NCBI GenBank assembly: GCA_030390025.1
Contig: CM059432.1
Location: 67,644,001-67,708,000, forward strand
Reading direction: 5' to 3'
From: Squalus acanthias
Taxonomy: Eukaryota
Length of the DNA stretch: 64,000 nt
Shown: in pieces, positions 1,292 to 64,000 of the stretch
How positions within the stretch are numbered: the stretch's first letter is position 1
Layout of the letters: the number at the start of each line of letters is the position of its first letter
Program-made: the position numbers and the translations under genes
The notes under the pieces: generated by a model
What the model saw: only the letters and a program-made list of their open reading frames with translations
The model's database searches: none
Told to the model about the DNA's origin: nothing

Positions 1292-2963
1292 TGTAAGGGT
1301 TTTTGTGTGTGACAACGCCTGTGGCTCTGTGCTCAGCCTGGGTGCTAGTGCGAGGTTAGGCCTTGTTGCCTGTTTTGGTCTCCAGCCAGTCTGGGAGCAC
1401 TAGACACCTGTGAGTGGTTCGACCCACTCGCCCTTACGGTTCTGACACTGGACTTAGATGCGAGAGCAATAATGGAGAGAAAACTCAGGTAGACCCGGTT
1501 GAATGGTACGAAATGGAAAATCTTTATTGCATATTATTCAAGATTACGAAATACATGTCATAAGCACAGATTAATGACAGGACAATCTTACACGCAGTTA
1601 TGTAACTAATTTTAGGGAAACGAGGAACGAACGACACATCGTAAATGGGGGCACACATTACAGTTATCCTTAAAACTTAAACCCTCCCCTATCAATACCT
1701 GCTCTAAACTAGATTTGTAGGATCGAGACTCATGCTCACCACTCGTGATAACTCGGAGAATTCCGAAAACTCTGCTCGGATGTTTTTAGCGCAGCACCTG
1801 ATCACCCACGTGTTGATCAGGGGTCTCTGTGCCCCACTTGTTTACTCGTTTCTGCTCCGGCTAGCAGGCTGGACCGTCTGCTGTCATGAAGATCTGTGTT
1901 GTCCTCGGAGTTCCGATACGACTCAAAAAATAGTCTTCCTGTGCCCTCGCCCCGATGCGATAAAACTCGAAGAATGGTCTTCCGATGCCAGTTCTGTAAA
2001 ACTCAAAAGATAGTCTTCCTGGGCAAGGAAAGTGTCTATTCGACCTACAGGCGCGGTCGGGGCTTACTGACCGTGGCGATACGTATGGTCGTCTTCTTCT
2101 CTTCTCATCTCATCTCATCTCATCTCATCTCATCTCGGGCCTTCGGTTCCAACACCGTTTACCGACTTCTCGGGATGGTGTGCCCGTTTCAAGGCTTCAC
2201 AGCCCAGTTCCACACAGATCTTCGCGGCAAGCCACGAGGTTGATCCTGGCGGATCAGAAAGTTCAATAGTCTTCTAGCAAGTCGAGCAGCAAGGAGTCAA
2301 GAGACAGCGTCGCAGGCGAAGAGGCAAGAGACAGATGGACGGCTGCACCTTTACAGTTATAGTGCTGCAATTCCTCTTTTCCCCGCCCAATCTTAATGTC
2401 TTTTCTTTTGTTAGGGTTTTGGCGCTCAAACTTCTTGTATAGGGTGATCTCCGTTTAATGGGTTTCGGTGATACTCGTAACTGCCTGAGTACCTGTTAAT
2501 ACTTTTCCCATTGTGTAACCGGTCAGTATTCTCCCTGGAGGGGTTTTGGGGCTTCCAAATGTTTCTGTAACTACCCACAAACGGCTCTCTCATCGTAGAG
2601 TCGTGGGGATTTTGCATATTAATGTCTTTGGATGGGTTATTGATCGTTTGGTACAATAGCCCTTATTCGCACCTGGGAGACCGATTCCAGTATTTCTGTG
2701 TAAAATGCAAACCCATTATGTCTTGTGATTTATCTCAAATGTGCTGAGTCTTGTCCGATCTCGCACAAATGTTTATTGGAACGCCATCTTGTCTGCTTAT
2801 CGAAAAGTCTAGAACGTTCTGCCACGAGGCATGGCGGCCATTTTATAGGCTGCTTGTGTCCACTTTGAAAACCTGACAGCATTCTGCTGAAATAAAGCTG
2901 TTTGAACGAAACTATGTGTTTCCTCCTTATTTATAAAATCGCGATTATATTGCGAATTCTACA
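1292..2963 (-). mobile_element. Solo LTR, family 1 (ERV-like), 1.67 kb
   Basis: TGTA...TACA termini; 4-bp TSD AAGG (1288-1291, 2964-2967); highly similar copies at 33448-35108 and 62111-63777; minus-strand AATAAA at 1523-1528. Confidence 0.9.
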
Positions 2964-4786: not shown

Positions 4787-6210
4787 CGTAGGGGGTGGTG
4801 GTGTGTGGGTCAGCGTCACCTCTGACTTCTGAGCGGTTCGAATCGCTCCCACTCCCTTGGTTCTAGACCTTGGACTTATTTGGGGGTTGTGACAAAAGTG
4901 CAGCAGACAACTGGTTTTGTTGCAAGAACTTTGATCTTTATTCAAAAGAGAAAATACAACACAACAATCTTAACACTCTAATAAAATGGGGAACACTTCG
5001 ATACACATGAGGGAAATTACATTAGAAAAATACCTCACCCCTCCCAATCCCACTTTACTCGCTAAGTTGGGCTCTAGAGGACCAGGGATAATGCTCACCA
5101 AAATGACTCCTTGACAGTTGAGCTGGTTTGCGGTTTCGGGGTTTGCTGGATGTGTTGGTTGGTGCCTGCCGTACCCCGGACGCGGTAGAGGACTTCAACT
5201 GCATATCTGGTCAGTCTTCGCGAGTCCGCTGATGCGGTAGGGTGCGTATTGGATTTATCGGGTGAGTACCCACTTTTCTTCGGTTAGAGTTAGGGTTTAG
5301 AGTCTTTTGAGTAAAAATCTTACCCAGGGGTAAGTCAGGAATAGATTGCAGAGTGGAAAACTTGCGAGTCTTCGGTTTTCTCCCGAGTTGGTTTTCTTTG
5401 GTTGCGGTGGCCCAATATTACCCCGTTGGTTGGTGGTAATATTCGGTTGGTTGTTTCGTAAGGCCCTTGTTGCCGCGAGGTGTCTGATGGTCACTGGAAC
5501 TGTTGCTCTGGTCTCTTCTTGTGTGTTCACCTGCTTCTAGAACTGTGAACTTCTTCGAACTCGATGAACTTCTGATTGTTGTAACTGCTCAACTCTCCTT
5601 CTTGAGAAAAGCAGGCCTCCAATTGTACTAATTGGGGCCTCCTAATCTGCGCGCCAAATCAGTCCCGGTTTATTGTAAGATTTTGGCGGGCTCGTTAATA
5701 GTAACTTGTTTATGAATGTGTGAAGTGGTTTCGGGATGGTTCCATGAGCTGTTGAGCTCTTTCTTGATTGTAGTCATTGTGCTCAGGTTTCGAGTTTCCT
5801 GACTGGGCCTGAGATTTCTATGGAGTGGGGCTAGGTGATTTGTTTTATGCATGTTTTGGATGGGTCTTGTAATTTGGGTGGGGACTGCTCTTCTGTGGGT
5901 CTATTGTTGGAATGTAAATTGTCTGATGGGGCTGAGTGATGTCAAACAGTTCCCCAGACAGTTTGATTAACTCCAATACTCAAACCGTCTATTACAGAGG
6001 TTGAACCCAACTCCTGTTGCAGCCTTTTCCTTTACAAGCCCAAACATGCCTTTTTTTTAAATACCAAATCTTGGTTTTTGACCTTGAATCTCCCTCTGTT
6101 AGGCCCAATACATTTTATCACCCTGAAGTGGTTAGAAAAGAGTCCAAAGTCCTTTTCTTTAAGATTTTTCTCAGAGTCTTGGGGGATCTATGAATTTTGA
6201 GAATCTTACA
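4787..6210 (-). mobile_element. Solo LTR, family 2 copy A
   Basis: Homologous to 16410-18072 at both ends; (C)GTAGGGGG...CTTACA termini; minus-strand AATAAA at 4937-4942; TSD degenerate. Confidence 0.8.
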
Positions 6211-15944: not shown

Positions 15945-18470
15945 AATTTCAATCACCATAAATCTGTGTCCTCTGGTTACTGACCTTTCTGTCACTGGAA
16001 ACAGTTTCTCCTTATTTATTCTATCAAAACCGTTCATGATTTTGAACACCTCCATCAAATCTCCTCTTAACCTTCTCTGCTTTATGGGGGAGCAACCCCA
16101 GATTCTCGAGCCTCTCCATGTAACTGAGGTCCCTCATCCCTGGTACCATTCTGGTAAATCTCCCCTGCACCCTCTATAAGGCCTTGACATCCTTCTTAAA
16201 GTGTGGTGCCCAGAATTGAACATAATACTCCAGCTGAGGCCTAACCAGTGTTTTATAAAGGTTTATCTAACTTCCTTGCTTTTGTACTCAATGCCTCTAT
16301 TAATAAACCAAGGATCCCGTATGCTTTTTTAACCGCTTTCTCAGCTTGTCCGGCCACCTTCAAAGTTTTGTGTACATACATCCCCAGGTCTCTCTGTTCA
16401 TGCACCCCCTGTAGGGGGTGGTGGTTTGTGTCAGCTTCACCTCTGACTTCTGAGTGGCTCGAATCGCTCCCACTCCCTTGGTTTAGACCTTGGACTTATT
16501 TGGGGGTTGCGATAAAAGGTGCAGCAGACAACTGAGTTTGATGAAAGAACTTCAATCTTTATTAAAAGGTAAAACACAATGACAACACTCTTAACACTCT
16601 GAAGGTGGGGAACACTTCGGTACAAGCGAGGGAAATGACAGTAGAACAATACTTCACCCCTCCCAACCCCACTTTACTAGCTAAGTTAGGCTTTGAAGGA
16701 CCAGGGATAGTGCTCACCAATCCTTTGACAGTTGGGCTAAATCGCGGTTTTTGGGGTTCGTTGTTTATGTTGGTTAGTGTCTGCCGTACCCCGTACGCGG
16801 TAGAGGACTTCACCTGCGTATCTGGTCAGTCTTCGCGAGTCCGCTGATGTGGTAGGATGTCGGTTTGGATTTATCTGGTGAGTACCCAATTTCTTTTGGT
16901 TAGCAATAGGGTTTAGAGTCTTTGGGAAAATCTTACTCGGGTAAGTCAGGAGTAGATTGTAGAGTGGAAACTTTGCGGTTCTTCGGGTTTTCTTCCCTTG
17001 AGTTGGTCTTTGTTGGTCACGGTGGCCCGCTATTACCCGGTTAGTTGGGGGTAATATGCGGTTATTGGTTTCGTGAGGCCTTTGGTTTCCGCGATGCTTT
17101 TAGGCCTTGTCTAGTGTGTCGGTCGACCTCGTGGAGCCGTCGGTGGCTTTTCGGCTTGTTGCTCCGGGTGACTGTGTTGGGACCGTTGTTGGAGGTCCGT
17201 CGAGGTGGTATCTTCACGAGCTGGACTCAGGTGTGTCTGAGTGGTGAGCGATGCCGACTCGCTTCCAGCTCGACTTGGGTCTGTGATGTTGCTCCTTGTC
17301 TCCACACTCGACTGTGTGTGTGATGCTGATGACCCGCTTGTCTCGACTGTCGAACCGCTTAACAGGCCTTCAATTATACCAAATTGAAGTGGCCTTATCT
17401 GCCCGCCAAATCTGCTCAGTTTATTGTCTGGTTTTGGCGGGCTCGTTAACGGTAACGACTTTACTAGCGTGTTAACTGGTTTTCAACAGGCCTTCAATCT
17501 CACCCATTGAACATGGCCTTATCTGCACGCCAAATCTTGTCTTACTCTTTGTAAGGTTTTGGCGGGCTCGTCACCAGTAACTGCTCTGTAAGTGTGAAAT
17601 GGTTTTTGGGATGACTTGCATCCTGACGATTTCCATGGTTGATCACTGGTGATTGGTTTCGTGTTTGGTTTTCTAGGCTGGACTCGGTCTTTCTATAGAA
17701 TGGGTCTGAGTGGTTTTTATTATGCATGTTTCTGATGGGCCCTGTAATCGGTTTTGATGGGGCCTGTATTTTGGGTGGGACTGTCTTTTCCCTGGGTCTA
17801 TTGTTCAAATGTTAATGTCTGCTGGGGCTTGAGTGAGGTCATCCTGGTTCCCCAGGCAGTGTAATTAACTGCAATAGTCAAACTGCTTTTACAGAGGTCG
17901 AGCCCACCTCCTTGTCCCTTTACAGGTCCAGACATGTTTTTAAAATGCCAAAACTTGGTTTTTGGTCTTAAATTCCTTAGGTTAGGCCCAAATACATTTT
18001 TATCACTCTAAGGTAGTTCCAAAGTCCTTTTTCCTTAGGGTTTGGGGATCTGTAAATTTTGGAAACCTTACACCCCTTCAAATTTGTACCAATTAGTTTA
18101 TATTACCTCTCCTCATTCTTCCTACCAAAATGTATCATTTCACACTTCTATGTGTTAAATTTCATCTGCCATGAGTCTGCCCATTTCACCAGTCTGTCTA
18201 TGTTCTCCTGAAGTTTGTTACTCACCTCCTCATTGTTTACTACATTTCCAAATTTCATATCAACTGCAAACTTTGAAATTATGCCCTGTGTACACAAGTC
18301 CAAGTGATCAATACATATCAAAAAGAGCAGTGGTCCTAATTCCGATCACTGGAGAACACGCTTCCTCCAATCTGAAAAACAACCGTTCACCACTTCTCTC
18401 TGCTTTCTGTCCCTTAGCCAATTCTGTATCCACGCTGCCACTGTCCTTTTAATCCCATGGGCTTCAATTT
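15945..18470 (-). mobile_element. CR1 RT fragment interrupted by LTR 16410-18072
   Basis: CR1 sequence reads continuously across the LTR insertion. Confidence 0.85.
16410..18072 (-). mobile_element. Solo LTR, family 2 copy B, 1.66 kb
   Basis: TGTA...TACA termini; TSD CCCC; minus-strand AATAAA at 16558-16563; internal ~95-bp duplication (about 17360-17455 and 17485-17580). Confidence 0.9.
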
Positions 18471-18524
18471 AATAAAGGGTATCTATCTGAAACATTAGCC
18501 TTTCTTTTCTCTTTTCAGATGTTT

Positions 18525-21500
18525 TTTAATAATTCGTTTATGGGATGTGGGCGTCGCTGGCAAGGCCAGCATTTATTGCCCATCCCTAATTGCCCTTTAG
18601 AAGGTGGTGGTGAGCCGCCTTCTTAAACCGCTGCAGTCCGTGTGGTGAAGGTACTCCCACAGTGCTGTTAGGTAGGGAGTTCCAGGATTTTGACCCAGCG
18701 ACGATGAAGGAATGGCGATATACTTCTAAGTCAGGATGGTGTGTGACTCGGAGGGGAACTTGGAGGTGGTGGTGTTCCCATGCGCCTGCTGCCCTTGTCC
18801 TTCTAGGTGGAAGAGGTCGCGGGTTTGGGAGGTGCTGCCGAAGAAGCCTTGGCGAGTTGCTGCAGTGCATCTTGTAGATGATACACACTGCAGCCACGGT
18901 ACACCGGTGGTGGAGGGAGTGAACGTTTAAGGTGGTAGATGGGGTGCCAATCAAGCGGGCTGCTTTGTCCTGAATAGTGTTGAGTTTCTTGAGTGTTGTT
19001 GGAGCTGCACTCATCCAGGCAAATGGAGAGTATTCCATCACACTCCTTACTTGTGCCTTGTAGATGGTAGAAAGGCTTTGGGGAGTCAGGAGGTGAGACA
19101 CTTGCCGCAGAATACCAAGCCTCTGACCTGCTCTTGTTGCCTCAGTATTTATGTGGCTGGTCCAGTTAAGTTTCTGGTCAATGGTGACCCCCAGGATGTT
19201 GATGGTGGGGGATTCGGCGATGGTAATGCCATTGAATGTCAAGGAACGGTGGTTAGACTCTCGCTTGTTGGAGATAGTCATTGCCTAGCACTTCTGTGGC
19301 GCGAATGTTACCTGCCGCTTATCAGCCGAAGCCTGAACGTCGTCCAGGCCTTGTTACATGCGGGCATGGACTGCTTCATTATCTGAGGAGTTGTAAATGG
19401 CACTGAACACTGTGCAGTCATCAGCGAACATCCCCATTTCCTGCGATATCCTGGGGCTGAGATGATTGAACTTCAACCACCACAACCATCTTCCTTTGTG
19501 TTAGGTATGACTCCAGCAAGTGGAGCGTTTTCCCCCCGATTCCATCGACTTCAGTTTTACTAGGGCTCCTTGATGCCACACTCGGTCAAATGCTGCCTTG
19601 ATGTCAAGAGCAGTCACTCTCACCTCACCTCTGGAATTTAGCTCTTTTGTCCATGTTTGGACCAAGGCTGTAATGAGGTCGGGAGCTGAGTGATCTTGGT
19701 GGAACCCAAACTGGGCATCAGTGAGCAGGTTATTGGTGAGTAAGTGCCGCTTGATAGCACTGTCGATGACACCTTCCATCACTTTGCTGATGATTGAAAG
19801 TAGACTGATGGGGCGGTAATTGGCCGGGTTGGATTTGTCTTGCATTTTGTGGACAGGACATACCTGGGCAGTTTCCACATTGTTGGACAGATGCTAGTGT
19901 TGTAGTTGTACTGGAACAGCTTGGCTAGAGGCGCGGCTAGTTCTGGAGCACAAGTCTTCAGCACGATAGCCGGGATGTTGTCAGGGTCCATAGCCTTTGC
20001 TATATCCAGTGCGCTCAACCATTTCTTGATATCACGTGGAGTGAATGAAATTGGCCGAAGACTGGCTTCTGTGATGGTGGGGACCTCAGGAGGAGGCCGA
20101 TATGGATCATCTAATCGGCACTTCTGGCTAAAGATTGTTGCAAACGCTTCAGCCTTGTCTTTTGCACTCACCTGCTGGGCTCCACCATCATTGAGGATGG
20201 GGATATTCATGGAGCCTCCTCCTCCCATTAGTTGTTTAATGGTCCACCACCATTCACGACTGGATGTGGCAGGACTGCAGAGCTTTGATCTGATCCGTTG
20301 ATTGTGGGATCGCTTAGCCCTGTTTATAGCATGCTGCTTCCGCTTTTAAGCATGCATGTAGTCCTGTGTTGCAGCTTCCCCAGATTGGCACCTCATTTTT
20401 AGGTACGCCTGGTGCTGCTCCTGACATGCTTTTCTACACTGCTTATTGAACCAGAGTTGGTCCCCTGGCTTTTTGGTAATGGTAGAGTGGGCCATGAGGT
20501 TACAGATTGTGGTGGAAAACAATTCTGCTGCTGCTGATGGCCCAGTTTTGAGCTGCTAGATCTGTTCTGAATCTATCCCATTTAGCATGGTAGTAGTGCC
20601 ACACAACATGATGGAGGGAGTCCTCAGTATGAAGACGGGACTTTGTCTCCACTGTGCGGTGGTCACTGCTACCAATGCTGTCATGGACAGATGCATCTGC
20701 GACAGGTAGATTGGTGAGGACGAGGTCAAGTAGGTTTTTTCCTCGTGTTGGTTCTCTCACCGCCTGTCGCAGGCCCAGACTGGCAGCTATGACCTTCAGG
20801 ACTCGGCCAGCTCGGTCAGTAGTGGTGCTACTGAGCCACTCTTGGTGATGGACATTGAAGTCCCCCATCCAGAGTACATTCTGTGCCCTTGCTACTCTCA
20901 GTGCTTTCTTCCAAGTGGTGTTCAACATGGCGGAGTACTGATTCATCAGCTGAGGGAGGGTGGTAAGTGATAATCAACAGGAGGTTTCCTTGCCCATGCT
21001 TGACCTGAAGCCATGAGACTTCATGGGGTCCAGAGCCAATGTTGAGGACTCCCAGGGCCACTCCTTCCTGACCGTATACCACTGTGCCGCCACCCCTGGT
21101 GGGTCTGTCCTACCGGTGGGACAGGACATTCCCAGAGATGGTGATGGAGGAGTTTGGGACATTGGCTTAAAGGTATGATTCTGTGAGTATGACTATGTCA
21201 GGCTGTTGCTTGACTAGTCTGTGGGACAGCTCTCACACTTTTGGCACAAATCCCTAGATGTTAGTAATGAGGACTTTGCAGGGTTGACTGGCCTGGGTGT
21301 GCTGTTGCTGTGTCCATAGCCGGTGCTGAGGTCGATGCGAGGTGGTCCGTCTGGTTTCATTCTTCGTAACGGTTTGTTACAACTGAGTGACTTGCTGGGC
21401 CATTTCAGAGGGCAGTTAAGAGTCAACCACATTGCTGTGGGTCTGGAGTCACATATAGGCCAGACCAGGTAAGGACGGCAGATTTTCTTCCCTAAAGGAC

Positions 21501-31577: not shown

Positions 31578-34500
31578 GGGAGCGATTTTCCCTGGATATT
31601 TTAAGCACTAAAGAGTCGCCAAGATCGCCAAGACAGGGTCTTGATCTGCAAAACCTGGTTAGCACGCCTTTAGCACAAGACACCATCTTGGTAAAGGAGT
31701 TGAAGCGGCACTAGGAACGGCCGCCCCGAGGATCATTAAGGCTCTGTTGCCAATTAAAGTGGCTTCTAATGCTCATTAAAGAGGCTGTGCGCCATTTTGC
31801 TGGCTAACGCTGCAATTAATGACCTCTCCTAACAGTGACCAGCTGAATAGGAGTAAAAGAGTCGTTGCTGAACATTGCAAGCGCGAATTAAAGCCATACT
31901 TAGCTTTCACTGTTCATTTACTGCTGGGGATCGACTGGCCACACTGCGTTTGAAGAGAACTTTTGATACACATCGGGAGACTTTCTGGGGCACTTTGTCA
32001 AGTTCTCTGAGGAATTCACCTAAAGAGAGTGAGTGCTGTGCTACTCTACCTTAGTGGAGACCTTATAAGAGTCACCAGGAGAAAGTGAGAGTTTGGTCAT
32101 GGGGATCTTGATAGAGGTCCCTCTTGGTCTGGAGGAGGAATGGGAGGAGGAATGAGAGGAGGAGATGAGGCCATGCAGAACAGCACCAGCTGCTGAAGGA
32201 GAGAGGGAGAGGAGAGACAGGAGGGTGAAGAGGGCTCCAGATTTGTGGTGACTTGCTGCATGCTCCACAATCTGGCGATCATGAGACCAGCCAATACCAC
32301 CAGCAATTGTGCCAGAGGGTCAAGCTCGGGAACCACAAGAGAAGGAGGAGGAAGAGGAGGAGGTTAAGAAGGAGGAGAAATACAAGGGGGACCAGAGGGA
32401 GCACCAGAGGATTCCAGCAGCCCACACCTAGGAGGGACGCTGGTCGCCATCTAATTGAAGACCGCTTTTAAGAGATGTCCTCCACCAACAGACTTCGGAG
32501 CACTATTGCCACATGCCTTACCTTCCGCAACTGAGGATCCATCAAGAAGTCCACCATCTGCACTCAATCCTTTCAACCCCTTCCCCATGAACAACACAAT
32601 AAAAAAGACCATCAATTCCAGCACTACACAATTACCATAATCAAACTTTATCTAGAGCAAACATAAACAATGAAAACATGACACTGCTAACATCACTTAC
32701 AAATTTTAAACTATTCAACCTGGTGCTTACCCTTAATAACTATCCTATAAGTGCTTTTGCCTACGCTGGTGATTTTACGAAGTGCAACCCAAGTTGCAGC
32801 AGCACGCAAGGTAGATGGCTGCTGAGATTCTGAAGAGGGCAGTTCAGGTGTCCTCCTGAGAAGCCTGAGAGAGGCTGTGGGCTGTGATGGCCCTGCCTCA
32901 GACTGCACCATCTCAGCATGGGTTTGAGCAGTCTGGGGCACCTAGCTGACAGGCAACTGCAAGGGCAATGGTGGAGTGCCGGGGGAGGGCGCAGCAATGC
33001 TGCCATCCAGAGAGAGGCCAGTAGGTTCCTGCTCCATGATTCATACGCTACTACCTCGGGGCGTCTGTTCAGCCCGCCCACTGATCTGCTGGAGGACAGA
33101 TCTCAGCATGCTGGGACACTCTGCAAGGCCCTTTCAACCGAGGAGCCCAGAGCCACCATGGCAGCTGCCTGAGCTTCTATTGCAGCACTTTGCTGTTCCA
33201 TGGATGATGCTGGTAGTGCAATGGAAGCTGTTTGGGCTTCCATTGCAGCACTTTATCGTTCCATGAAAGCTGTTTGGCATTTCCAGGTGCATGCGACTGT
33301 GATGATCTGTGTTCTACCCTAGCATCTAAGTTACCCGTGGTGCCAGTCCTGAGCTGGCGTCTGTTACAGTGGTAGCAATTGACTCAGTGCCTTCTTCCTC
33401 GCTCTCCTCCACCACTTCCTCTGGGGGGCAAGATGGCTCTTCCTCCTTGTAGAATTCGCAAAATTATCGCGATTTTATAAAATAAGAAGGAGACATAAAG
33501 TTTCGTACAAACAGCTTTATTTCAGCAGAATGCTGTCAGGTTTTCAAAGCGGACACAAACAGCCTGTAAAATGGCCGCCACGCCTTGTGGCAGAACGTTC
33601 TATACTTTCAATGAGCAGACAAGATGGCGTTCCAATAAACATTTGTGCAAGATCGTACAGGACTCAGCACATTTGAGATAATTGACAAGACATGATGGGT
33701 TTGCATTTTATACATAAATACTGGAATCGGTCTCCCAGGTGCGAATAAGGGCTATTGTACCGAGCGATCAAGAACCCATCCAAAGACATTAATATGCAAA
33801 ATCCCCACGACTCTACGATGAAAGAGCCGTTTGCGGGTAGTTACAGAAAGCATTTGGAAGCCCCAAAACCCTTCCAGGGAGACTACTAGCCGGTTCCACA
33901 ATGGGAGAAGTATTAACGGGTACTCAGACAGTTACAAGTATCACCGAAACCCATTAAAAACGGAGATCACCCTATACAAGAAGTTTGAGCGCCAAAAACC
34001 TGACAAAAGATAGACATTAAGATTGGGCGGGAAAAGAGGAATTACAGCACTATAACTGTAAGGTACAACCGTCCATCTGTCTCTTGCCTCTCTTGCCTCC
34101 TGCTACTCTTGCTGCTGACTGCTGTCTCTGCTTCTTTTTGCACTTGCTGCTTTGACTCGCTGGAAGACTGTTGAACTTTTATTCTCTTGCCTGACGGCTC
34201 TGGACTCTGATCCGCTAGGATCAACCTCGTGGCTTGCCGCGAAGATCTGTGTAGAACTGGGCTGTGAGGCCTTGAAACGGGCACACCATCCCGAGAAGTC
34301 GGTAAACGGTGTTGGAACCGAAGCCCCGAGATGAGATGAGATGAGATGAGAAGAGAAGAAGACAACAATATGTATCGCCACTGTCAGTAAGCCCCGACCG
34401 CGCCTGTAGGTCGAATAAACACTTTCCTTGCCCAGGAAGACCATTCTTTGAGTTTTACAAACTGGTGAGGGCACAGGAAGACTCTTTTTCGAGTAGTATC

Positions 34501-35750
34501 GGAACTCCGAGGACAACACAGATCTTCATGACAGCAGACGGTCCAGCCTGCTAGCCGGAGCAGAAACGAGTAAACAAGTGGGGTACAGAGACCCCTGATC
34601 AACACGTGGGTAGTCAGGCGCTGCGGTAAAAACATCCGAGCAGAGTTTCGGAATTCTCCGAGTTATCACGAGTGGTGAGCATGAGTCTCGATCCTACAAA
34701 TCTAGTTTAGGACAGGTATTGATAGGGGAGGGTTTAAGTTTTAAGGATAATTGTAATGTGTGCCCCCTTTTACGATGTGTCATGCGCTCCTCGTTTCCCT
34801 AAGATTAGTTACATAACTGTGTGTAAGATTGTACTGTCATTAATCTGTGCTTATGACATGTATCTCGTAATCTTGAATAATATGCAATAAAGATTTTCCA
34901 TTTCGCACTATTCAACCGGGTCTACCTGAGTTTTCTCTGCATTATTGCTCTCGCACCTAAGTCCAGTGTCAGAACCGTAAGGGCGAGTGGGTCGAACCAC
35001 TCACAGGTGTCTAGTGTTACCAGGCTGGCTGGAGACCAGAACAGGCAACAAGGCCTAACCTCGCACTAGCACCCAGGCTAAGCACAGAGCTGCAGGTCAC
35101 CCCTTACATCCGCTTCCAGATCCTCCGGGGGGTGAGGTGGATCTTGCTCCTGGGAGCTTGCAATGATCAAGCTAGATGGGTTAGGGTGCAGGGTGTGTGG
35201 CCACTATAGGACGATGTGTGTGATGAGATCATATGGAGCGTGTGAGTGCGGATAGGTTTGGGGATTAGGGAGCAGGAATGGTTGTGGATATATAAGGAAG
35301 CTGGAGTGGCCACATACCTCGAGGCAATATGTCCCCTGCTCTGCCTGTGGCCATGGTGCATGCTGCTCCCCTCCCGATCTCCGCCAGCACTGCCTCCTCA
35401 AGGGGAGTGATCTCGTGCAGTTTTGCCTCCCCTCCCCCGGTCAGGTCCTGCTGGCACCTGTTATGTGCTACCTTGTCCTGGAAGAGAAAGAGTGGCGATT
35501 GTGAATGAGTGTTGGCATGCGATGCCTCACATGATTTATAGAATCATAGAAATTTACGGCATAGAAGGAGGCCATTCAACCCATCGTGTCTGTGCCGGAA
35601 AGCCAGCTGAAGTGCTGTGAGATGTGTCTGAGGTGTAAGAGGTGCCTGTGAAAGATGCAATAGTGCAGAGTGTGTGAATGTTAGTGTGCAGTTAGATGGT
35701 GGATGAAATGTGTTGAAGTTGTTATGTTGGTGGTGGTGGTGCAGTTATTG
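31578..35750. mobile_element. Degenerate PIF/Harbinger element interrupted by LTR 33448-35108
   Basis: Transposase N-terminal remnant on + (about 32100-32560); convergent Myb-gene remnants on -, similar to 30100-30750 and 59000-59700. Confidence 0.55.
33448..35108 (+). mobile_element. Solo LTR, family 1 copy 2
   Basis: Reverse complement of 1292-2963; TSD TCCT/TCCG; ATTGG/GCGGGAAA at about 34022-34035, TATAA at 34051, AATAAA at 34886. Confidence 0.9.
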
Positions 35751-36324: not shown

Positions 36325-39300
36325 GGGAACAGTAGAGTAGTGGTAATGTCACTGGGCTAGTAATCCAGAGGCCTGGATTAATGATGCAGAGATGTGAGTT
36401 CAATTTAAATTCAGTTAATTAAACAAATCTGGAATAATTACTAGTATCAGGCTCACTAATGTCCTTTAGGAAGGAAATCTGCTGTCCTTACCTGGTCTGG
36501 CCTATATGTGACTCCAAGACCCACAGCAATGTGGTTGACTCTTAACTGCCCTCTGAAATGGCCTAGCAAGCCACTCAGTTGTAACCGGACGGACCACCCA
36601 ACATCGACCTCGGCACGGCACACACGGCCCAGTTGACCCTGCAAAGTCCTCCTCACCAACATCTGGGGACTTGTGCCAAAATTGGGAGAGTTGTCCCACA
36701 GAATCATACCTTTCAGCCAATGTTCCAAAATCCTCCATACAGTCGGGAAGGAGTGGTCCTGGGAGTTCTCAACATTGACTCATTTCTCCAGGGCAAGGAA
36801 ACCTCCTACCACCTATGGCCCGGTGAATCAGTACTCCTCCAGGTTGAACACCACTTGGAAGAAGCACTGAGTGTAGCAAGGGCACAGAATGTACTCTGGG
36901 TGGGGCACTTCAATGTCCATCACCAAGAGTGGCTGGGTAGTGCCACTACTGGCCGAGTCCTGAAGGACATAACTGCCAGTCTGGGCCTGTAATAGGTGGT
37001 GAGAGAACCAACACGAGGGGAAAAACCTACTTGATCTTGTCCTCACCAACCTACCTGTCGCAGATGCATCTGTCCATGACAGTATTGGTAGCAGTGACCA
37101 CCGCACAGTCATTGTGGAGACGAAGTCCCATCTTCAAACTGAGGACACCCCCCATCGTGTTGTGTGGTAGCACCACCGTGCTAAATGGGATAGATTCAGA
37201 ACAGATCTAACAGCTCAAAACTGGAAATCCATGAGGTGCTGTGGGCCATCAGCAGCAGCAGATTTGTATTCCACCACAATCTGTAACGTCATGGCCCGAC
37301 ATATCCCTCACTCTACCATTACCATCAAGCCAGGGGACCAACCCTGGTTCAATAAGGAGTGTAGAAGAGCATGCCAGGAGCAGCACCAGGCATAGCTAAA
37401 AATGAAGTGCCAACCTGGGGAAGCTGCAACACAGGACTACATGCATGGTAAAAAGCGGAAGCAGCATGCTATAGACAGGGCTAAGCGATCCCACAATCAA
37501 CGGATCAGATCAAAGCTCTGCAGTCCTGCCACATCCAGTCGTGAATGGTGGTGGACCATTAAACAACTAACGGGAGGAGGAAGCTCCATGAATATCCCCA
37601 TCTTCAATGATGGTAGAGCCCAGCATGTGAGTGCAAAAGACAAGGTTGAAGTATTTGTATCCATCTTCAGCCAGAAGTGCCGAGTGGATGATCCATATCG
37701 GCCTACTCCTGAGGTCCCCACCATCACAGAAGCCAGTATTCAGCCAATTCGATTCACTCCACATATCAAGAAACGGCTCAGCGCACTGGATACAGCAAAG
37801 GCTATGGGCCACGACAACATCCCAGCAATCGTGCTAAAGACTTCTGCTCCAGAACTAGCCGCGCCTCTGGCCAAGCTGTTCCAGTACAGCTATAACACTG
37901 GCATCTATCCGACAATGTGGAAAACTGCTCAGGTATGTCCTGTCCACAAAAAGCAGGATAAATCCAACCCGGCCAATTACCGCCCCATCAGTCTACTCTC
38001 AATCACTAGCAGAGTGATGGAAGGTGTCATCGACAGTGCTATCAAGTGGCACTTACTCACCAATAACCTGCTCACTGATGCCCAGTTTGGGTTCCGCCAA
38101 GACCACTCGGCTCCTGACCTCATTACAGCCTTGGTCCAAACATGGACAAAGGATCTGAATTCCAGAGGTGAGGTGAGACTGACTGCCCTTGACATCAAGG
38201 CAGCATTTGACCGAGTGTGGCATCAAGGAGCCCTAGTAAAACTGAAGTCAATGGGAATCGGGGGGGGGGTGGGAAATTCACAACTGGCTGGAGTCATACC
38301 TAACACAAAGGAAGATGGTTGTGGTGGTTGGAGATCGATCATCACAGCCCCAGGACATCGCTGCAGGAGTTCCTCAGGGCAGTGTCCTAGGCCCAACCAT
38401 CTTCTGCTGCTTCATCAATGACCTTCCCTCAACATAAGGTAAAAAATGGGGATGTTTGCTGATGACTGCACAGTGTTCAGCACCATTCACAACTCCTCAG
38501 ATAATGAAGCAGTCCATGCCCGCATGCAACAAGACCTGGACGACGTTCAAACTTGGGCTGATAAGTGGCAGGTAACATTTGCGCCACAGAAGTGCCAGGC
38601 AATGACTATCTCCAACAAGCGAGAGTCTGACCACCTCCCCTTGACATTCAACGGCATTACCATCACTGAATCCCCCACCATCAACATCCTGGGGGTCACC
38701 ATTGACCAGAAACTTAACTGGACCAGCCACATAAATACTGTGGCAACAAGAGCAGGTCAGAGGCTAGGTATTCTGCGGCAAGTGTCTCACCTCCTGACTC
38801 CCCAAAGCCTTCCCACCATCTACAAGGCATAAGTAAGGAGTGTGATGGAATACTCTCCACTTGCCTGTTGAGTGCAGCTGCAACAACACTCAAGAAGCTC
38901 GACATCATCCAGGAGAAAGCAGCCCATTTGATTGGCACCCCATCCACCACCTTAAACGTTCACTCCACTACCGGCGTACCGTGGCTGCAGTGTGTACCAT
39001 CTACAAGATGCACTGCAGCAACTCGCCAAGGCTTCTTCGGCAGCACCTCCCAAAACCGCGACCTCTTCCACCGAGAAGGACAAGGTCAGCAGGCGCATGG
39101 GAACACCACCACCTCCAAGTTCCCCTCCAAGTCACACACCATCCTGACTTAGAAGTATATCGCCGATCCTTCATCGTCGCTGTGTCAAAATCCTAGAACT
39201 CCCTCCTTAACAGCACTGTGGGAGTACCTTCACCACACGGACTGCAGCGGTTCAAGAAGGCAGTTCACCACCACCTTCTCAAGGGCAACTAGGGATGGGC

Positions 39301-39345
39301 AACAAATGCTGGCCTTGCCTGCGACGCCCAGATCCCATAAGCAAT
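36325..39345 (+). mobile_element. CR1-group LINE with tRNA/SINE-like 5' head, copy 2
   Basis: Starts GGGAACAGTAGAGTAGTGG; APE and RT ORF pieces at 36633-39196 including FADD; same tail as 18525. Confidence 0.88.
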
Positions 39346-39629
39346 TTTTTTTAAAGTACCGTGTCGTGCCAACGCGCATGATGCTGCGGCACGTAGCACC
39401 GCGATATTGGGCTGGAGCGCCCCAAGAGGGAGGGGGAGCACTTCCAGTAGCACCCCGCCTCCTGCTTGGGGCGCTACCATTGAATTTCGGGCGTGGGGGC
39501 GCTAACTTTTTCGGGGCGCGAAGTTAGCGCCCCAAAGAGAGTGCGACCCAATTTTTGCCCCCATGGGTTTGAGATTAACTATTTTTTCTTTACACCCACC
39601 CCCCAGAAATCAAGAAACAGCTGACTGCA

Positions 39630-43432: not shown

Positions 43433-46400
43433 ACATAAGAACATAAGAAATAGGAGCAGGAGTAGACCAATCGGCCCCTCGAGCCTGCTCCGCCATTCAA
43501 TGAGATCATGGCTGATCTGATCCAACCTCAACTCTAAAGAACACAAGAAGTAGGAGCAGGACCAGGCCACTCGGCCCCTGGGCCCGCTCCGCCACCCACA
43601 AGGCCTTGACCGATCCGAACTCAAACTCATGTCCAATTTCCAGCCCGCTCCCCGTAACCCCTGATTCCCTTTACTTCTAGGAAATGGTCTATTTCTGTTT
43701 TAAATTTATTTGATGAAGTAGCTTCCACAGCTTCCTGGGGTAGCAAATTCCACAGACCCACTACCCTCTGAGTGAAAAAGTTTCTCCTCATCTCAGTTTT
43801 GAAAGAGGAGCCCCTTATTCTAAGATTATGTCCCTTAGTTCTAGTTTCACCCATCATTGGGAACATCCTCACCACGTCCACCCGATCAAGCCCCTTCACA
43901 ATCTTGTATGTTTCAATAAGATCGCCTCTCATTCTTCTGAACTCCAATGAGTAGAGTCCCAATCTACTCAACCTCTCCTCGTATGTCCACCCCCTCATCC
44001 CCGGAATTAACCGAGTGAACCTTCTTTGTACTGCCTCGAGAGCAAGTATGTCTTTTCTGAAGTATGGACACCAAAACTGTATGCAGTACTCCAGGTGCGG
44101 TCTCACCAATACCCTATACAACTGCAGCAATACCTCCCTGTTTTTATATTCTATCCCCCTAGTAATAAAAGCCAACATTCCATTGGCTTTCTTGATCACC
44201 TGCTGCACCTGCATACTAACTGTTTGATTTTCTTGCACCAAGACCCCCAGATCCCTTTGTACTGCAGTACTTTCCAGTTTCTCGCCATTAAGATAATAAC
44301 CTGCTCTCTGATTTTTCCTGCCAAAGTGCATAACCTCACATTTTCCAATATTGTATTGCATCTGCCAAATCTCTGCCCACTCACCCAGCCTGTCTATATC
44401 CCCTTGTAGGTTTTTTATGTCCTCCTCACTCTCTACTTTCCCTCCCATCTTTGTATCATCTGCAAACTTTGATATGTTACACTCGGTCCCCTCCTCCAAA
44501 TCGTTAATATAGATTGTAAAGAGTTGGGGACCCAGCACCGACCCCTGCGGAACACCACTGGCTACTGGTTGCCAGTCCAAGAATGAACCATTTATCCCAA
44601 CTCTCTGCTTCCTGTTAGATAACCAATCCTCCACCCATGCCAGAATATTACCCCCAATCCAGTGATTTTTTATCTTGAGTAATAATCTGTTATGTGGCAC
44701 CTTGTCGAATGCCTTCTGGAAGTCTAAATACACTACATCCACTGGTTCCCCTTTATCCACCCTGTACGTTATGTCCTCAAAGAACTCGAGCAAATTTGTC
44801 AGACATGACTTCCCCTTCATAAAGCCATGCTGACTTTGTCCTATTAAATTATGTTTATCTAAATGTTCCGTTACTGTCTCCTTAATAATAGACTCCAAAA
44901 TTTTACCCACCACAGATGTTAGGCTAACTGGTCTATAATTTCCAGCCTTCTGCCTACAACCCTTTTTAAATAAGGGTGTTACATTAGCAGTTTTCCAATC
45001 TGCCGGGACCTTTGCTGAGTTCAGGGAGTTTTGGAAAATTATTACCAAAGCATCCACAATTCCTACTGCCACTTCCCTCAAGACCCTAGGATGTAAGCCA
45101 TCAGGTCCAGGGGATTTATCCGCCTTGAGTCCCATTATTTTACTGAGTACCAATTCCTTAGTGATTTTAATCGTATTTAGCTCCTCCCCCACTAGAGCCC
45201 CCTGTTTGTCCAGTGTTGGGATATTCTTAGTGTCCTCTACCGTAAAGACTGAAACAAAATATTTGTTCAGCATTTTTGCCATCTCCATGTTTCCCACCAT
45301 TAATTTCCCGGTCTCATCCTTTAAGGGACCTACGTTTGCCTTAACCACCCTTTTTCTTTTTATATAACTATAGAAACTCTTGCTATCTGTTTTTATATTT
45401 TTTGCTAATTTATTTTCATAGTCTATTTTCCCTTTCTTAATCAATCCTTTAGTTACTTTTTGTTGTCTTTTGAAGATTTCCCAATCTTCTATCCTCCCAC
45501 TAACTTTGGCTACCTTATATGTCCGTGTTTTTAGTTGGATACTTTCTTTAATTTCTTTACTTAGCCATGGATGGCTGTCATTTCTTTTACACCCTTTTTT
45601 CCTCAGTGGAATATATTTATTTTGAAAGTTGTAAAATAACTCCTTGAATGAACACCACTGCTCATATACCGTCTTACCCTTTAATCTATTTTCCCAGTCC
45701 ACTTTAATCAATTCTGCTCTCATGCCATCATAGTCTCCTTTATTCAAGCTCAGTATGCTTGTTTGAGAACCAACCTTCTCACCCTCTAATTGGATATGGA
45801 ATTCAACCATGTTATGGTCACTCATTCCAAGGGGATCCTTAACTAGGACATTATTAATTAATCCAGACTCATTACACAGTACCAGGTCCAAGGTTGCTTG
45901 CCCCCTTGTAGGATCAGTTACATACTGTTCAAGAAATCCATCCCTAAGACACTCAATAAACTCTTCCTCAAGGCTGCCCTGCCCAATTTGATTTGTCCAG
46001 TTAATATGATAGTTAAAATCCCCCATAATTATAGCTGTTCCCTTATTACATGCCCCAACTATTTCCTGATTAATACTTCTTCCAACAGAGTTGCAACTAT
46101 TAGGAGGCCTATATACTACGCCCACCAGTGTTTTTTCCCCTTATTATTCCTTATCTCTACCCAAACTGTTTCATTATCCTGATCTTTTGACCCAATATCA
46201 TTTCTCTGTATTACAGTGATTCCTTCCTTTATTAACATAGCCACCCCCCCCCCCTCTCCCCTTCCTTCCTGCCTGTCCTTCCTGATTGTTAAATACCCTG
46301 GCATATTTAATTCCCAGACGTTGTCACCCTGCAGCCATGTTTCTGTAATGGCCACAAGATCATACCATACATAGTTATTTGTGCTGTTAACTCGTCAATT

Positions 46401-57309: not shown

Positions 57310-60300
57310 GGGGGAAAAATTCGGTACCTTAGTGCCTCTAGTTTGCACCAGCAGATGGCGCTATTGGGGCGCTAGAGCATTATTGGCGCGGTGAGGTGAA
57401 TCCAATGCTGCACGCCAAATCCTGCACCTCCGCAGCGCCGCTGCTAACAGTTATCGCTGGGAACATCAATGCCAGGTGGATCGAGACCTCAGTGAGTGTG
57501 CAACACTCACTGACCGCCCGATTTGCGAAATTGATTGTCGCCACCTACCTTAGCACCTGGAGGAAACAGCGACAGGGAGAGCTGGCATGAAGCAACAGGA
57601 AGCCGGCTCCAGGGATGTTATTTAAAGGGATCATCAGTAATGAGTCGCAGCTGTAGGTTAGTGGAATTTCAGTGCTTTTTTGTCAGCTTCACATAGTGCA
57701 AAAGTCTCATTCCGTAATTTCAATGTTATTTAGTATCAGGAGTGTTTTGGCAACTAAAAAGTAGCTACATTTATTCTTAAAAAAATCAAACTGCTACACT
57801 TGGTGACATTAATGGGGGCTGTACTGACATTCTGTGACCTCCCGGATGCAACGATGAATGACGAACTACGAGATGTTAGCTATGTCTCCTGTTGCAGACT
57901 GGAAGGATCCGCTTTCAAAGAAATTAAGGGCGACAGTGACCTTGACTGCGACTGAGAGAGCTGTGATCACCCTGATCTGAGGCTGGAGGTCTGGTTGCAG
58001 GAGGTGGCAGAGTTCTGTGACCACCTCCTTGGTGAAGCGGAGCCTTCTAATGCACTGCTCCTCGCTTAATTGGAGGTAGGAGAAGTGCTCTCGGAATACC
58101 CTTGGAGGATAAGGCCTCCTGTTGAAAGCCCTGATGGCCCTCCTCCTCCCTCTGGCCACATGTTCCAGTCTTTCTCGCTGCCTCTGCTGTAGATCTTGGA
58201 GGGTGAGGTTGACTGTCAGTGTAGCCCCCATTAATATCACCAAGTGTAACAGTAACAAGAGGCACTAAGGGATTGCACAAGGGTGAATAGGTAATATTTT
58301 TGTTGTAAATATGTGTTCACTGATTTTTGATAAAATTTATTAATTCAGTTTGGATTCTTTTGTGGCGTCTCTCATTTCAGCTTTGCACTGTGATATGACC
58401 TGCAACAGGGATGGAGTGATGGGGATGTGGTGAGCAACAGGGATCTGTGGTTTAATTTATTGGAATCGCAGTCTGATGAGATGGTCACGGACCGCCCTCC
58501 CAGAAGGCCGATTGAGTGGCTGCCTCCTCCCTCGCTCCTTCTCCTCGTCCTCCTCATCCTCCTCATTGTCATCCTCATCTTTCTCTTCCTCCTCATCCTC
58601 CTCTCCTCCTCTCCCTCTTCCTCCTCCTGAGGTGGTCCTGCAATCCCTGGTGGCAAGGGCTGGACTCTCATGATGGCCAAGTTGTGGAGCATGCAGCAGA
58701 CCACCACGAAATGGGACACCCGCTCACACCCTGCTCAGCCGAGTACTGGAGGGCTCCTCCCGAGCAGTCAAGGCAGCAGAACCATTGCTTCAGCAGGCCG
58801 ATGGTCTGCTCGATGATGTTCCTGGTGGCAGCATGACTGTCATTATATGAGTGCTGGGCAGGAGTGTTGGGGTTGTGGAGGGGAGTCATGAGCCAGGTGG
58901 AGAGCGGATAGCCCTTGTCTCCAACCAGCCAGCTGCCAGCTTGACGTGGTGGCTGTAAGCGTGCTGGCACAGCGGTCTGGCTGCAGCCCACTCATCCCCG
59001 GTGCCTCACCCGGTGCAGATCCCACTACTATACTAGCCTCTAAAGAACGCGTAGTGCCAGTATCTGAGCTGGTGCCTGCAGGTGAGAGATGCAGTGACGC
59101 GGTGTGTTCTTCGTCCTCCTCTTCTCCCGCATCGCCCTCTAAGGTGCCCTCAGGGACAGGCTGCTCAGGTGCTTGCTGATTATCTGAAAGCATAAAGGCA
59201 CAAGAGTCAGGTTAAGGTGAGAGGAGGGGGACAGGAAGAGAGAAATGCATGCATGCAACATGATTAGCTGGAAAGTGCGAAAGGCTTGTGGGGTGAGGGA
59301 GAAGTGGGATGTGAGAAGAAGGAGTAGGGCTGAACATACCGTTGTTGTCCCTAAGGGGGTCAACGTCGCCGGTGGCCACAGTGCCCACCACCTGGCGCCC
59401 AATAATCTGCAGCACTCGATTTTCCAGCACAGACAGTGGTTCGGTGTCAGCTTGTCCACCGCCTGTGCGCTCCTGCTCCCTCCTGTTGTGAGCCACCTTG
59501 GCCTGAAAGAGAAAGGAAAGTGTGTGGAGCAATGTGTTTGGGTGATGTGCCTGCCATAGTTAAATAGCTGTCATTGTGTACAAAATGTGAGATGTGGGTG
59601 TGAGTGTTGGTAGGTAGAGATTGTTGGTGGGTGAGTGCTGGGGGTGTGGTGCTTTGGGCAGTGTATGAAGATTGTGATACAGACGGTGGTATGTAGCATT
59701 TGTTGAAGCATTGACTCACCCTGACCACCCGAATGTGGTTGTTAAATTTCTTCCTGCACTGTGTGTGGGTCCTGGGGACCACAGTGCTGCCCTCCACATG
59801 CTGCACTACCTCCCTCCACATGGTGCGGAAGACTTGCGGTTGGGGCCTCCTGCCACTTGCTGGTTTAAAGCCTGGTACTAATTCTCCAACTTTTCTAATG
59901 ATACCGCCCATTCCTGGGCTATAATGAATTTCCAGCTCATTTTTTATCACAATTCAGTATGTTCGTTTTGCATTCAGAGCAACTTAATGAGGTGTGAACT
60001 AGTGAGTAAGCACAGTTGTTTCTGGCTGAAACAAACGGAGCGCTTCAGACACTATGGAGGAGATATTCGATATAGCCCCGGTGGGGGCGCTAAAACTTTA
60101 AGGGGTAAAAATTCAGTTGGTTGCGCCTCCCGTTAGCGCCTTAAGAGGGCGCTAATGGGGCGCAAAGCCGCTAACGCCCGGGCGCAGTGATGTTTGCGCC
60201 GCTCGGGAACTTAACTTGACATTGTGCGGCGGCGCTAAAACTTACCGCTGCGACCACCTGCGCGCGCAGATTGTGACGTCATTCCATGGTGCAACGCCCT

Positions 60301-62110: not shown

Positions 62111-63777
62111 TGTAAGGGTTTCTGACCCGTGTGGCTCTGTGCTCAGCCTGGGTGCTAGTGCGAGGTTAGGCCTTGTTGCCTGTTCTGGTCTCCAGCCAGT
62201 CTGGGAGCACTAGACACCTGTGAGTGGTTCGACCCACTCGCCCTTACGGTTCTGACACTGGACTTAGGTGCGAGAGCAATAATGGAGAGAAAAACTCAGG
62301 TAGACCCGGTTGAATGGTGCGAAATGGAAAATCTTTATTGCATATTATTCAAGATTATGAACTACATGTCATAAGCACAGATTAATGACAGTACAATCTT
62401 ACACGCAGTTATGTAACTAATTTCAGGGAAACGAGGAACGAACGACACATCGTAAATGGGGGCACACATTACAGTTATCCTTAAAACTTAAACCCTCCCC
62501 TATCAATACCTGCTCTAAACTAGATTTGTAGGATCGAGACTCATGCTCACCACTCGTGATAACTCGGAGAATTCCGAAAACTCTGATCGGATGTTTTCCC
62601 CGCAGCACCTGATCACCCACGTGTTGATCAGGGGTCTCTGTACCCCACTTGTTTACTCGTTTCTGCTCCGGCTAGCAGGCTGGACCGTCTGCTGTCATGA
62701 AGATCTGTGTTGTCCTCGGAGTTCCGACACGACTCGAAAAATAGTCTTCCTGTGCCCTCGCACTGATTCGATAAAACTCAAAGAATAGTCTTCCGATGCC
62801 AGTTCTGTAGAACTCAAAGATGGTCTTCCTGGGCAAGGAAAGTGTCTATTCGACCTACAGGCACGGTCGGGGCTTACTGACCGTGGCGATACGTATGGTC
62901 GTCTTCTTCTCTTCTCATCTCATCTCATCTCATCTCATCTCATCTCGTCTCGGGCCTTCGGTTCCAACACCGTTTACCGACTTCTCGGGATGGTGTGCCC
63001 GTTTCAAAGCTTCACAGCCCAGTTCCACACAGATCTTCGCGGCAAGCCACGAGGCTGATCCTGGCGGATCGTAAAGTTCAACAGTCTTTAAAAGCTGCAA
63101 GAGACAGAGACACGAGGCAAGCGGCAAGGAGTCGAAAGGATAAGAGAAAAATGGACGGTTGCAGCTTACAGTTATAGTGCGAACACTCTTCTTTTTCCCG
63201 CCCAACCTTAATGTCTTTTCTTTTGTTAGGGTTTTGGCGCTCAAATTTCTTGTATAGGGTGATCTCCGTTTAATGGGTTTCGGGGATACTCGTAACTGTC
63301 TGAGTACCTGTTAATACTTTTCCAATGTGTAACCGGTCGGTATTCTCCCTGAGGGGTTTTGGGGCTTCCAAATGTTTTCTGTAACTACCCGCAAACGGCT
63401 CTCTCATCGTAGAGTCGTGGGGATTTTGCATATTAATGTCTTTGGATGGGTTCTTGATCGCTTGGTACAATAGCCCTTATTCGCACCTGGGAGACCGATT
63501 CCAGTATTTATGTGTATACTGCAAACCCATAATGTCTCGTGTATTATCTCAAATGTGCTGAGTCTTGATCGATCTCGCACAAATGTTTATTGGAACGCCA
63601 TCTTGTCTGCTTATCGAAAAGTCTAGAATGTTCTGCCACGAGGCGTGGCGGCCATTTTTACAGGCTGCTTGTGTCCACTTTGAAAACCTGACAGCATTCT
63701 GCTGAAATAAAACTGTTTGAACGAAACTATGTGTTTTCTCCTTATTTATAAAATCGCGATATATTGCGAATTCTACA
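62111..63777 (-). mobile_element. 3' LTR (family 1) of a provirus extending beyond the window
   Basis: Same LTR as 1292-2963; no TSD; preceded on the minus strand by PPT-like CAGGAGGG-AC. Confidence 0.85.
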
Positions 63778-64000
63778 GTCCCTCCTGTTGATGCGAATAA
63801 CTCCGCTTATCGTATCAAAAAATATTGTGGTGAGCAATATTATCTCGATTTCTCCAGATCCAGAAAAATAATCCCCATAACTTAAACTATCTAGGGTCTT
63901 TGCGTCGTCCTTATTTCCCAAAAAATTACATTCTTATAACACCGCAGGCATTATTTGCCTTTAAACTTACACCACTTGTTTTCCTTCCAGGCGTAACCAG
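63778..64000 (-). mobile_element. Proviral internal 3' region with polypurine tract
   Basis: Minus strand ...caacaggagggac|TGTAGAATTC; sequence does not resume the CR1 ORF1 flank. Confidence 0.75.

Follow-up and report, generated by a model that had tools for sequence, protein, structure and literature searches.

Just upstream of its PPT, a provirus in the genome of the shark Squalus acanthias carries an antisense stretch that can pair with the donor-proximal part of R, and this long-range anti-R:R duplex is very probably real and selected. The conserved unit is an interrupted duplex of 40-60 nt between the pre-PPT stretch and the R region, and it points to an RNA switch built into the element, by which the viral RNA's identical ends could be made to act differently. 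That the duplex neutralises the donor-linked signals of the 3' R copy, thereby licensing polyadenylation, is a reading to which we give slightly less than even credence. The initial annotation of the window (the whole 64,000-nt stretch of DNA analysed here) had proposed that a local hairpin with a loop antisense to the splice donor acts as a U1 mimic; what it had found is one end of a structure that is real and larger.

The provirus and its affinities

The provirus reads LTR, PBS, gag, TGA-CTAG, pol, env-like frame, about 450 nt of UTR, PPT and LTR, with two LTRs that are 98.9% identical, a target duplication of 4 nt and, in the window's copy, one in-frame stop each in pol and env (Table 1). 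The PPT, the AATAAA, the PBS and the gag, pol and env frames all lie on the minus strand, which had rightly been taken as the sense strand. Placed from the TATA-like box, the RNA start would precede the donor by about 600 nt. The PBS matches tRNA-Arg(TCG), and in all four copies read gag and pol are in frame across a single TGA-CTAG (L032 ~392 (-)), a read-through context. In families 1 and 2 (L032 ~2200 (-); L109, L111) the start codon of gag overlaps the beginning of the PBS, so that the leader is entirely R-U5; in this copy (L032) it measures about 1040 nt and contains 13 upstream ATGs.

Table 1. Coordinates in the window of the features discussed in the text
Feature	Position	Strand	Remarks
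3' LTR (TG...CA, 1667 nt)	62111..63777	-	part of a ~12.75-kb provirus extending beyond the window
AATAAA	62334..62339	-	211 nt downstream of the donor
GGGAG-containing G-run	62493..62500	-	just downstream of the paired R segment
R partner of the anti-R element	62514..62553	-	starts at the donor, -3 to ~+37
Major splice donor GTG/GTGAGCA	62544..62553	-	GT at 62550-62549
R-internal stretch	63039..63061	-	possible competitor for the donor region in this copy
TATA-like box	63171..63176	-	CTATAA motif, also upstream of the donor in other families
PPT	63780..63789	-	followed by AC and the LTR's TG; assigned from sequence
Second hairpin, directly 5' of the PPT	63790..63816	-	weak in family 1
Local AT-rich hairpin	63814..63849	-	subfamily-specific; competes with helix II
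Anti-R element (3' UTR)	63827..63864	-	helix I (anti-donor) 63836-63827; helix II 63849-63843; helix III 63864-63852
Solo LTR, family 1, with donor	1292..2963	-	
Solo LTR, family 1, with donor	33448..35108	+	
Solo LTR, family 2, with donor core	4788..6210	-	
LTR, family 2, with donor core	16411..17600	-	upstream boundary approximate

Several further features of the elements and their surroundings were observed. The element's primer tRNA, tRNA-Arg(TCG), occurs with tRNA-Ser(GCT) in large tandem arrays with a ~1.62-kb unit (G000:C26, 39.0-42.2 Mb), a pattern with 429 genome matches. Families 1-3 have, near the end of U5 and ahead of the tRNA-Arg PBS, a small hairpin (window 62222-62239) whose loop resembles the tRNA T-loop (GNTCGAA). 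The LTR holds a stop-to-stop frame of 126 codons (window 62930-63310 (-)) with counterparts of 120-165 codons in other family-1 copies. A PPT-like word, CAAAGGGAGG, recurs internally near the pol end in family 1 (L031 ~5950 (-)) and inside env in family 5 (L215 1288, L217 1263, L220 4068), a possible central PPT, and in family 3 (L193, L196, L198, L202) env ends in ~49-nt units repeated in tandem, in varying numbers. Elsewhere in the window lie a LINE endonuclease-RT frame of 837 codons (43627-46140 (-)) and a second RT-bearing repeat family in inverted copies (36824-39349 and 18523-20945).

The element is lokiretrovirus-like, and membership of the lokiretroviruses is likely. In passages of Wang and Han (2021, PMC7947760), lokiretroviruses are described as LTR-gag-pol-env-LTR elements with a degraded and a second RNase H, an F-protein-like Env (RXKR site, fusion-peptide-like stretch, coiled coil and TM) and, as nearest RT relatives, NYNRIN-like proteins of amphibians and coelacanth; none are reported there from three chondrichthyan genomes, and the main text is without the strings 'splic', 'polyadenyl' and 'PBS'. 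The shark element likewise has gag, pol and env between two LTRs, and its Pol comprises RT, a degraded RNase H, a second RNase H and integrase in the domain order PF17919/PF17917, PF00075, PF17921, PF00665, the dual-RNase-H arrangement of lokiretroviruses. Its Env contains an RQRR site followed by a hydrophobic stretch, and a TM; Atlas features place it at 0.93-0.95 to the Fusion_gly/Baculo_F/Gypsy clusters. No Pfam or PDB match was found for Env, the single-sequence model of which has a pLDDT of 35, and the named Env homologues come only from a sawshark and a skate. A weak Ig_3 match (E 0.18) lies in the N-terminal part of Env (L031 4996-5808 (-), P0003 167-243).

The nearest Pol relatives are named NYNRIN-like; NYNRIN is another name for CGIN1, to which the IN of lokiretroviruses is related. 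Lokiretrovirus RTs form a clade that is sister to known retroviruses. An RT tree of 28 rows, with four short rows left out and no named Loki sequence included, places the element outside the retrovirus-like and metavirus clades and in an open fork with NYNRIN-like proteins. A search of metagenome and viral contigs found no relatives. We also considered and rejected a foamy virus: gag and pol are in frame, whereas foamy viruses express pol from an mRNA spliced for it alone; the PBS is that of tRNA-Arg(TCG); and only about 450 nt without a long frame lie between env and the PPT, where foamy viruses have tas/bet before the LTR. Foamy viruses use a tRNA-Lys1,2 primer.

The splice donor and the long-range duplex

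The LTR motif proposed as a donor is a working one, joined to the env acceptor in a single event. At L225/L226, one locus seen twice, a junction probe reveals 130 nt of R that end exactly at the donor and continue into the env acceptor; template switching at a nearby shared ATCAC would give another joint, and we therefore infer that this locus, the one event of spliced retrocopying on which the evidence rests, is a copy of spliced RNA. The family-1 junction probe gave three matches (L224, L225, L226) and the family-2 probe none. L224 was rejected as a plain spliced copy, being a pol-env copy that carries exon-end letters. Its env acceptor (~1500) bears the last letters of the donor exon, as if spliced RNA had recombined with unspliced RNA at a word of 5 nt common to both. 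Four guessed-RNA contig sets compared with L031 have no donor joint among the joints listed; starts and ends are invisible in them, and they are uninformative either way.

The donor lies between the TATA-like box and the AATAAA, in the foamy-like order expected from the initial annotation, and a donor-like site in this interval is found in all six testable families; the donor core is kept in families 1, 2, 3 and 7. The annotation was equally correct that the 9-nt core, TGGTGAGCA, is present in all five LTRs of the window (1733-, 34673+ and 62544- in family 1; 5092- and 16711- in family 2). Stretches of the type ACTTACCTGG, which we take to resemble the U1 5' end in the sense direction, or a perfect donor if the antisense strand is read, occur about 45 nt upstream of the donor in L133, L131 and L130, and at about -165 and -230 in other family-2 LTRs; in L133 this stretch pairs locally with the donor in both folds.

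In the window's copy, TGCTCACCAC (63836-63827) is the exact complement of GTG/GTGAGCA (62553-62544), as the initial annotation had stated; the 10-mer turns up once elsewhere, at 58427, in an unrelated context. Unnoticed in that annotation, the complementarity extends for about 30 nt past this match. By RNAduplex the anti-R element pairs at about -37 to -39 kcal/mol with the donor region, its best-scoring site within the LTR. This pairing falls into three helices in the window's copy: the first covers the donor with 10 bp, the second (7-8 bp) spans +11 to +18, and a looser third one reaches about +40. Within 1.5 kb of LTR, the donor region is the best partner of the pre-PPT stretch in 29/30 family-1 and 28/30 family-2 loci. 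Both parts were present in 98 of 120 loci, all duplex loci being from one genome; of the 77 distinct pairs they yielded, 76 reach z <= -2.1 against 100 shuffles each. Own-family pairing (mean -37.7/-40.4/-47.1) is 4-20 kcal/mol better than cross-family pairing (-27.2 to -33.5), and with subfamily representatives cognate exceeds permuted pairing (61/10000 with eight representatives, 13/10000 with 15).

The pattern of substitutions also follows the pairing. Among single transitions common to at least three rows, 21 give G-U and three give A-C, versus 10 and 13 among rare ones (Fisher p 0.002, a value that, like all p-values here, is too small because the copies are related). This wobble bias is what would be expected if sense-strand pairing were kept in replicating lineages and not after insertion. 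Two-sided changes occur in family 1 (A-U to G-C at donor +14, five rows; U-A to C-G at +17) and in family 2 (C-G/U-A at +27 and +25; A-U/G-C at +21 and +34), and L208 has a 2-nt insertion on both sides of the duplex; three rows with wrong or inserted donor windows (L141, L166, L013) were dropped. A slid-register control on the two-sided pairs gave no discrimination (13 vs 7-12 and 4 vs 0-3 pairs), and a structure-blind MI-APC did not single out the duplex, which provides one of the top 15 pairs in family 1 and two of the top 15 in family 2. In the window's own provirus the pre-PPT stretch only ties for first place among 2070 windows (-38.8), three other sites lying within 1.3 kcal/mol. The GGGAG downstream of the paired segment is present in 9/10 listed copies of families 1, 2, 3 and 7, the family-2 copy L131 being without it, and in 0/5 of families 5 and 6.

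The local hairpin precedes the start of the LTR (63777) by 37-72 nt and was drawn correctly by the initial annotation: the minus-strand 36-mer (63849-63814) folds into 14 bp with one bulged U, two G-U pairs and a 7-nt loop. Alone, it reaches -7.2 kcal/mol on the minus strand (z -4.5, 0/200 shuffles) and -5.6 on the plus strand (z -1.9); when 101 nt of context are folded, z on the minus strand is no better than -0.7. Its conservation was counted by eye with a pattern anchored on both sides of the hairpin, for the 100 of 526 junction matches that were listed (55 of family 1 and 45 of family 2). Among these, the exact inner stem is found in 40/55 family-1 and 0/45 family-2 copies, the 3' arm being altered in 15/55 and absent in 45/45; among fetched loci, the exact stem is kept in 30/44 of family 1 and 0/65 of family 2. 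The hairpin is thus not a conserved unit. Conservation of the loop holds in part, its core GCTCACC being invariant in family 1 (55/55 of the matches listed) but present in only 8/45 of the listed family-2 copies, where 36/45 have other variants, mostly GTCCACC; the family-2 donors read are mostly unchanged despite the mismatched anti-donor. The 30 closest copies, all with the hairpin, were set aside as uninformative, since they are 98-99% identical and the query itself contained it.

Directly before the PPT, a second hairpin is seen in all seven families (also L133, L202, L213, L215, L216, L221), with arms that differ and stay complementary; against shuffles, these hairpins score z -0.1 to -2.6 and are individually not significant.

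Further families, numbered together with the first two as families 1-7 (labels of this analysis), were picked by Env/Pol similarity, blind to the motif. The loci picked by Env were 32 of 123 matches, of which 22 were scored, two of them on a neighbouring element; family 4 (L213, L214), with a truncated LTR, was left out of the duplex test. In family 3 (4/4 copies) and family 7 (one copy), the pre-PPT segment again pairs with R, in unrelated letters, and representatives of families 1, 2, 3 and 7 have no BLAST match at E 0.01 in the UTR end and LTR. Pairing energies are -43 to -54 in family 3, where real value and best shuffle differ little (-52.5 and -51.1), and -68 in family 7 against -40 +/- 4, the null having been scanned with a coarser step that slightly favours the real value. 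In families 1 and 2 the duplex takes in the donor; in families 3 and 7 the paired R segment lies 45-110 nt downstream of the main donor, which it leaves uncovered and which sits within a local hairpin. Masking of the donor, as first proposed, is therefore not supported as a general rule. In families 5 and 6 (Env about 30% identical), whose poly(A) signal follows the donor by about 80 nt, none of the five copies has a duplex that exceeds shuffles.

Folding models do not consistently give the switch and support it in part. Folds of 1-1.7 kb are unreliable; whole-region folds of eight copies form the 3' duplex fully in three, partially in two and hardly in three. Donor accessibility falls from the 5'-like to the 3'-like fold in 2/8 copies and is unchanged or higher in six. 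In family 7 the effect is plain: the ensemble contains 55.6 long-range pairs, and the unpaired probability of the donor goes from 0.67 to 0.28. The window's copy is among those in which the duplex hardly forms; the local hairpin wins in its fold, where it may be a nucleating loop or a neutral competitor, and the change in donor accessibility runs through another partner.

Proposed role and rival explanations

The donor and the downstream leader lie in R, so that every transcript would carry both twice. At the 5' end the donor would be free, and there it splices to env, as the spliced copy attests; it probably also restrains, through U1, the poly(A) signal 150-335 nt downstream. The latter idea draws on the foamy virus, for which passages of Schrom et al. 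(2013, PMC3694450) report that U1 at the R donor suppresses 5' LTR polyadenylation. A donor in R thus poses a foamy-type problem, in that the 3' copy must escape U1 suppression. In the shark elements, the 3' R copy is preceded, 0.5-1.7 kb upstream, by the unique 40-60-nt antisense stretch before the PPT, which would pair in families 1 and 2 with the donor plus the 40 nt that follow it, and in families 3 and 7 with R 45-110 nt beyond the donor. Such pairing would displace the local fold and disable the 3' donor-linked signals, letting 3' end formation proceed, with the donor buried in families 1 and 2 and the segment after it remodelled in families 3 and 7.

Complementarity, covariation, the bias towards the sense strand and the use of the donor are demonstrated. 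The choice of the 3' copy as partner, the suppression by U1 and the effect on polyadenylation are the inferred parts of this scheme; from the layout it follows that the 3' copy is the nearer partner and the sole one in spliced env RNA. Against the scheme speak the uncovered donor in families 3 and 7, the presence of a donor without a duplex in families 5 and 6, the mismatched anti-donor in 36/45 of the listed family-2 copies, the inconsistent folds, the mere tie in the window's provirus, and the slid-register control and MI, which do not single out the duplex. By analogy, a dedicated element may be unneeded, since in the foamy virus any sequence upstream was enough (PMC3694450). The fullest version, in which a lokiretrovirus-like lineage in sharks uses a cis-antisense outside the LTR that crosses U3, invades R, evicts U1 and turns polyadenylation on, rebuilt in at least four families, is tentative, and we lean towards doubting it.

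Reverse transcription keeps the R copies identical, so sequence alone cannot separate a 5' from a 3' partner, and both circularisation and the silencing of another R signal stay live rivals. The pre-PPT element could pair with the 5' R of the unspliced genome, joining its two ends and aiding first-strand transfer or genome selection, as proposed for HIV-1 gag-U3R or Ty1 (a precedent from passages of PMC1976439); we consider this unlikely, though deserving of weight. The partner is almost wholly intronic and hence missing from the 5' end of spliced RNA, it is always at or downstream of the donor, coverage of which would be unnecessary, the element adjoins the PPT, and covariation is blind to which R copy is involved. 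Yet the identical 3' copy is about 10x nearer and present in all RNAs, so that selectivity for unspliced RNA would be lost, and the invariant anti-donor core (55/55 family-1 rows among the matches listed) would go unexplained. Moreover, the 5' partner is copied and degraded in strong-stop synthesis, these being established steps of reverse transcription. Quite unlikely, in our judgement, is that the duplex silences the 3' duplicate of some R signal other than the donor, such as one for packaging, dimerisation or a G-run. The paired segment ends about 10-20 nt before GGGAG in all four duplex families, non-duplex families are without GGGAG, and gag starts inside the PBS, which puts the genome-specific leader in R/U5 and duplicates it at the 3' end; against this, no packaging signal is mapped for these elements, L131 is without GGGAG, and the duplex of families 1 and 2 is centred on the donor.

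The absence of any function is highly unlikely: the complementarity would be inherited by chance or come from templated mutation, or CTCACC would be a branch point or acceptor, or a donor on the antisense strand. The single-copy energy is not unique, the slid-register control and MI are weak, family 2a is acceptor-like at the place of CTCACC, and the kinship of the copies deflates p-values. However, a duplex is kept in one and the same position by four families that have no LTR similarity; the wobble bias depends on the strand and is missing from rare variants; and the ensemble helix of family 7 has 55 bp. Barely credible is the narrow proposal that the local hairpin and its 10-nt loop are the functional unit, the loop being the U1 mimic. 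The hairpin is stable alone and forms in the fold of the window's copy, its loop core is invariant in family 1 among the matches listed, and the loop could nucleate the longer duplex; but the stem is changed in 15/55 family-1 and missing in 45/45 family-2 rows among those matches, and helix II of the covarying duplex requires the 5' arm of the stem. A mimic confined to the loop also fits poorly with covarying pairs 13-39 nt downstream of the donor and with an anti-donor that is imperfect in 36/45 of the listed family-2 copies. By conservation, the narrow proposal is largely refuted. What survives of the initial annotation is the cis-acting antisense strand at the donor region, with pre-PPT complementarity that is kept and covaries, though as a longer duplex and not as a hairpin loop.

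Significance and comparison with known systems

How identical LTRs come to act differently is an old question of retrovirology. A distant lineage now shows the foamy-type layout, with a donor in R, and combines it with a discrete long-range duplex that covaries; we found no description of a pre-PPT:R duplex of this kind in the open-licence PMC and bioRxiv literature. The natural variants (families 1, 2, 3 and 7 vs 5 and 6) and the compensatory pairs make the duplex testable. If true, the proposed licensing of polyadenylation would be one more way in which retroviruses choose between poly(A) sites, deduced from covariation across hundreds of fossil copies. The elements also add evidence for lokiretrovirus-like elements in cartilaginous fishes, and differ from the lokiretroviruses described in an Env with a long N-terminal part that has a weak Ig-like match.

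Like the foamy virus, as described in passages of Schrom et al. (PMC3694450), the shark elements have a donor in R before the poly(A) signal and hence in both LTRs, a layout called unique to foamy viruses there. In the foamy virus, the 3' donor must be neutralised by RNA structure with upstream sequence, and the suppression is relieved by as little as 13 nt of the neighbouring U3, or by upstream sequence unrelated to it. Unlike this local change, the shark elements carry a separate antisense of 40-60 nt, outside the LTR and 0.5-1.7 kb away, that covaries with R. A second likeness is to HIV-1 gag-U3R and Ty1, where, according to passages of Ooms et al. (2007, PMC1976439), long-range pairing near the genome ends, likewise with support from covariation, is proposed to serve strand transfer, packaging or 3' polyadenylation. 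In HIV-1 the unique partner lies in gag and the repeated one in U3R, whereas in the shark elements the unique partner lies before the PPT and the repeated one in the donor-proximal part of R, with pairing possible at either end.
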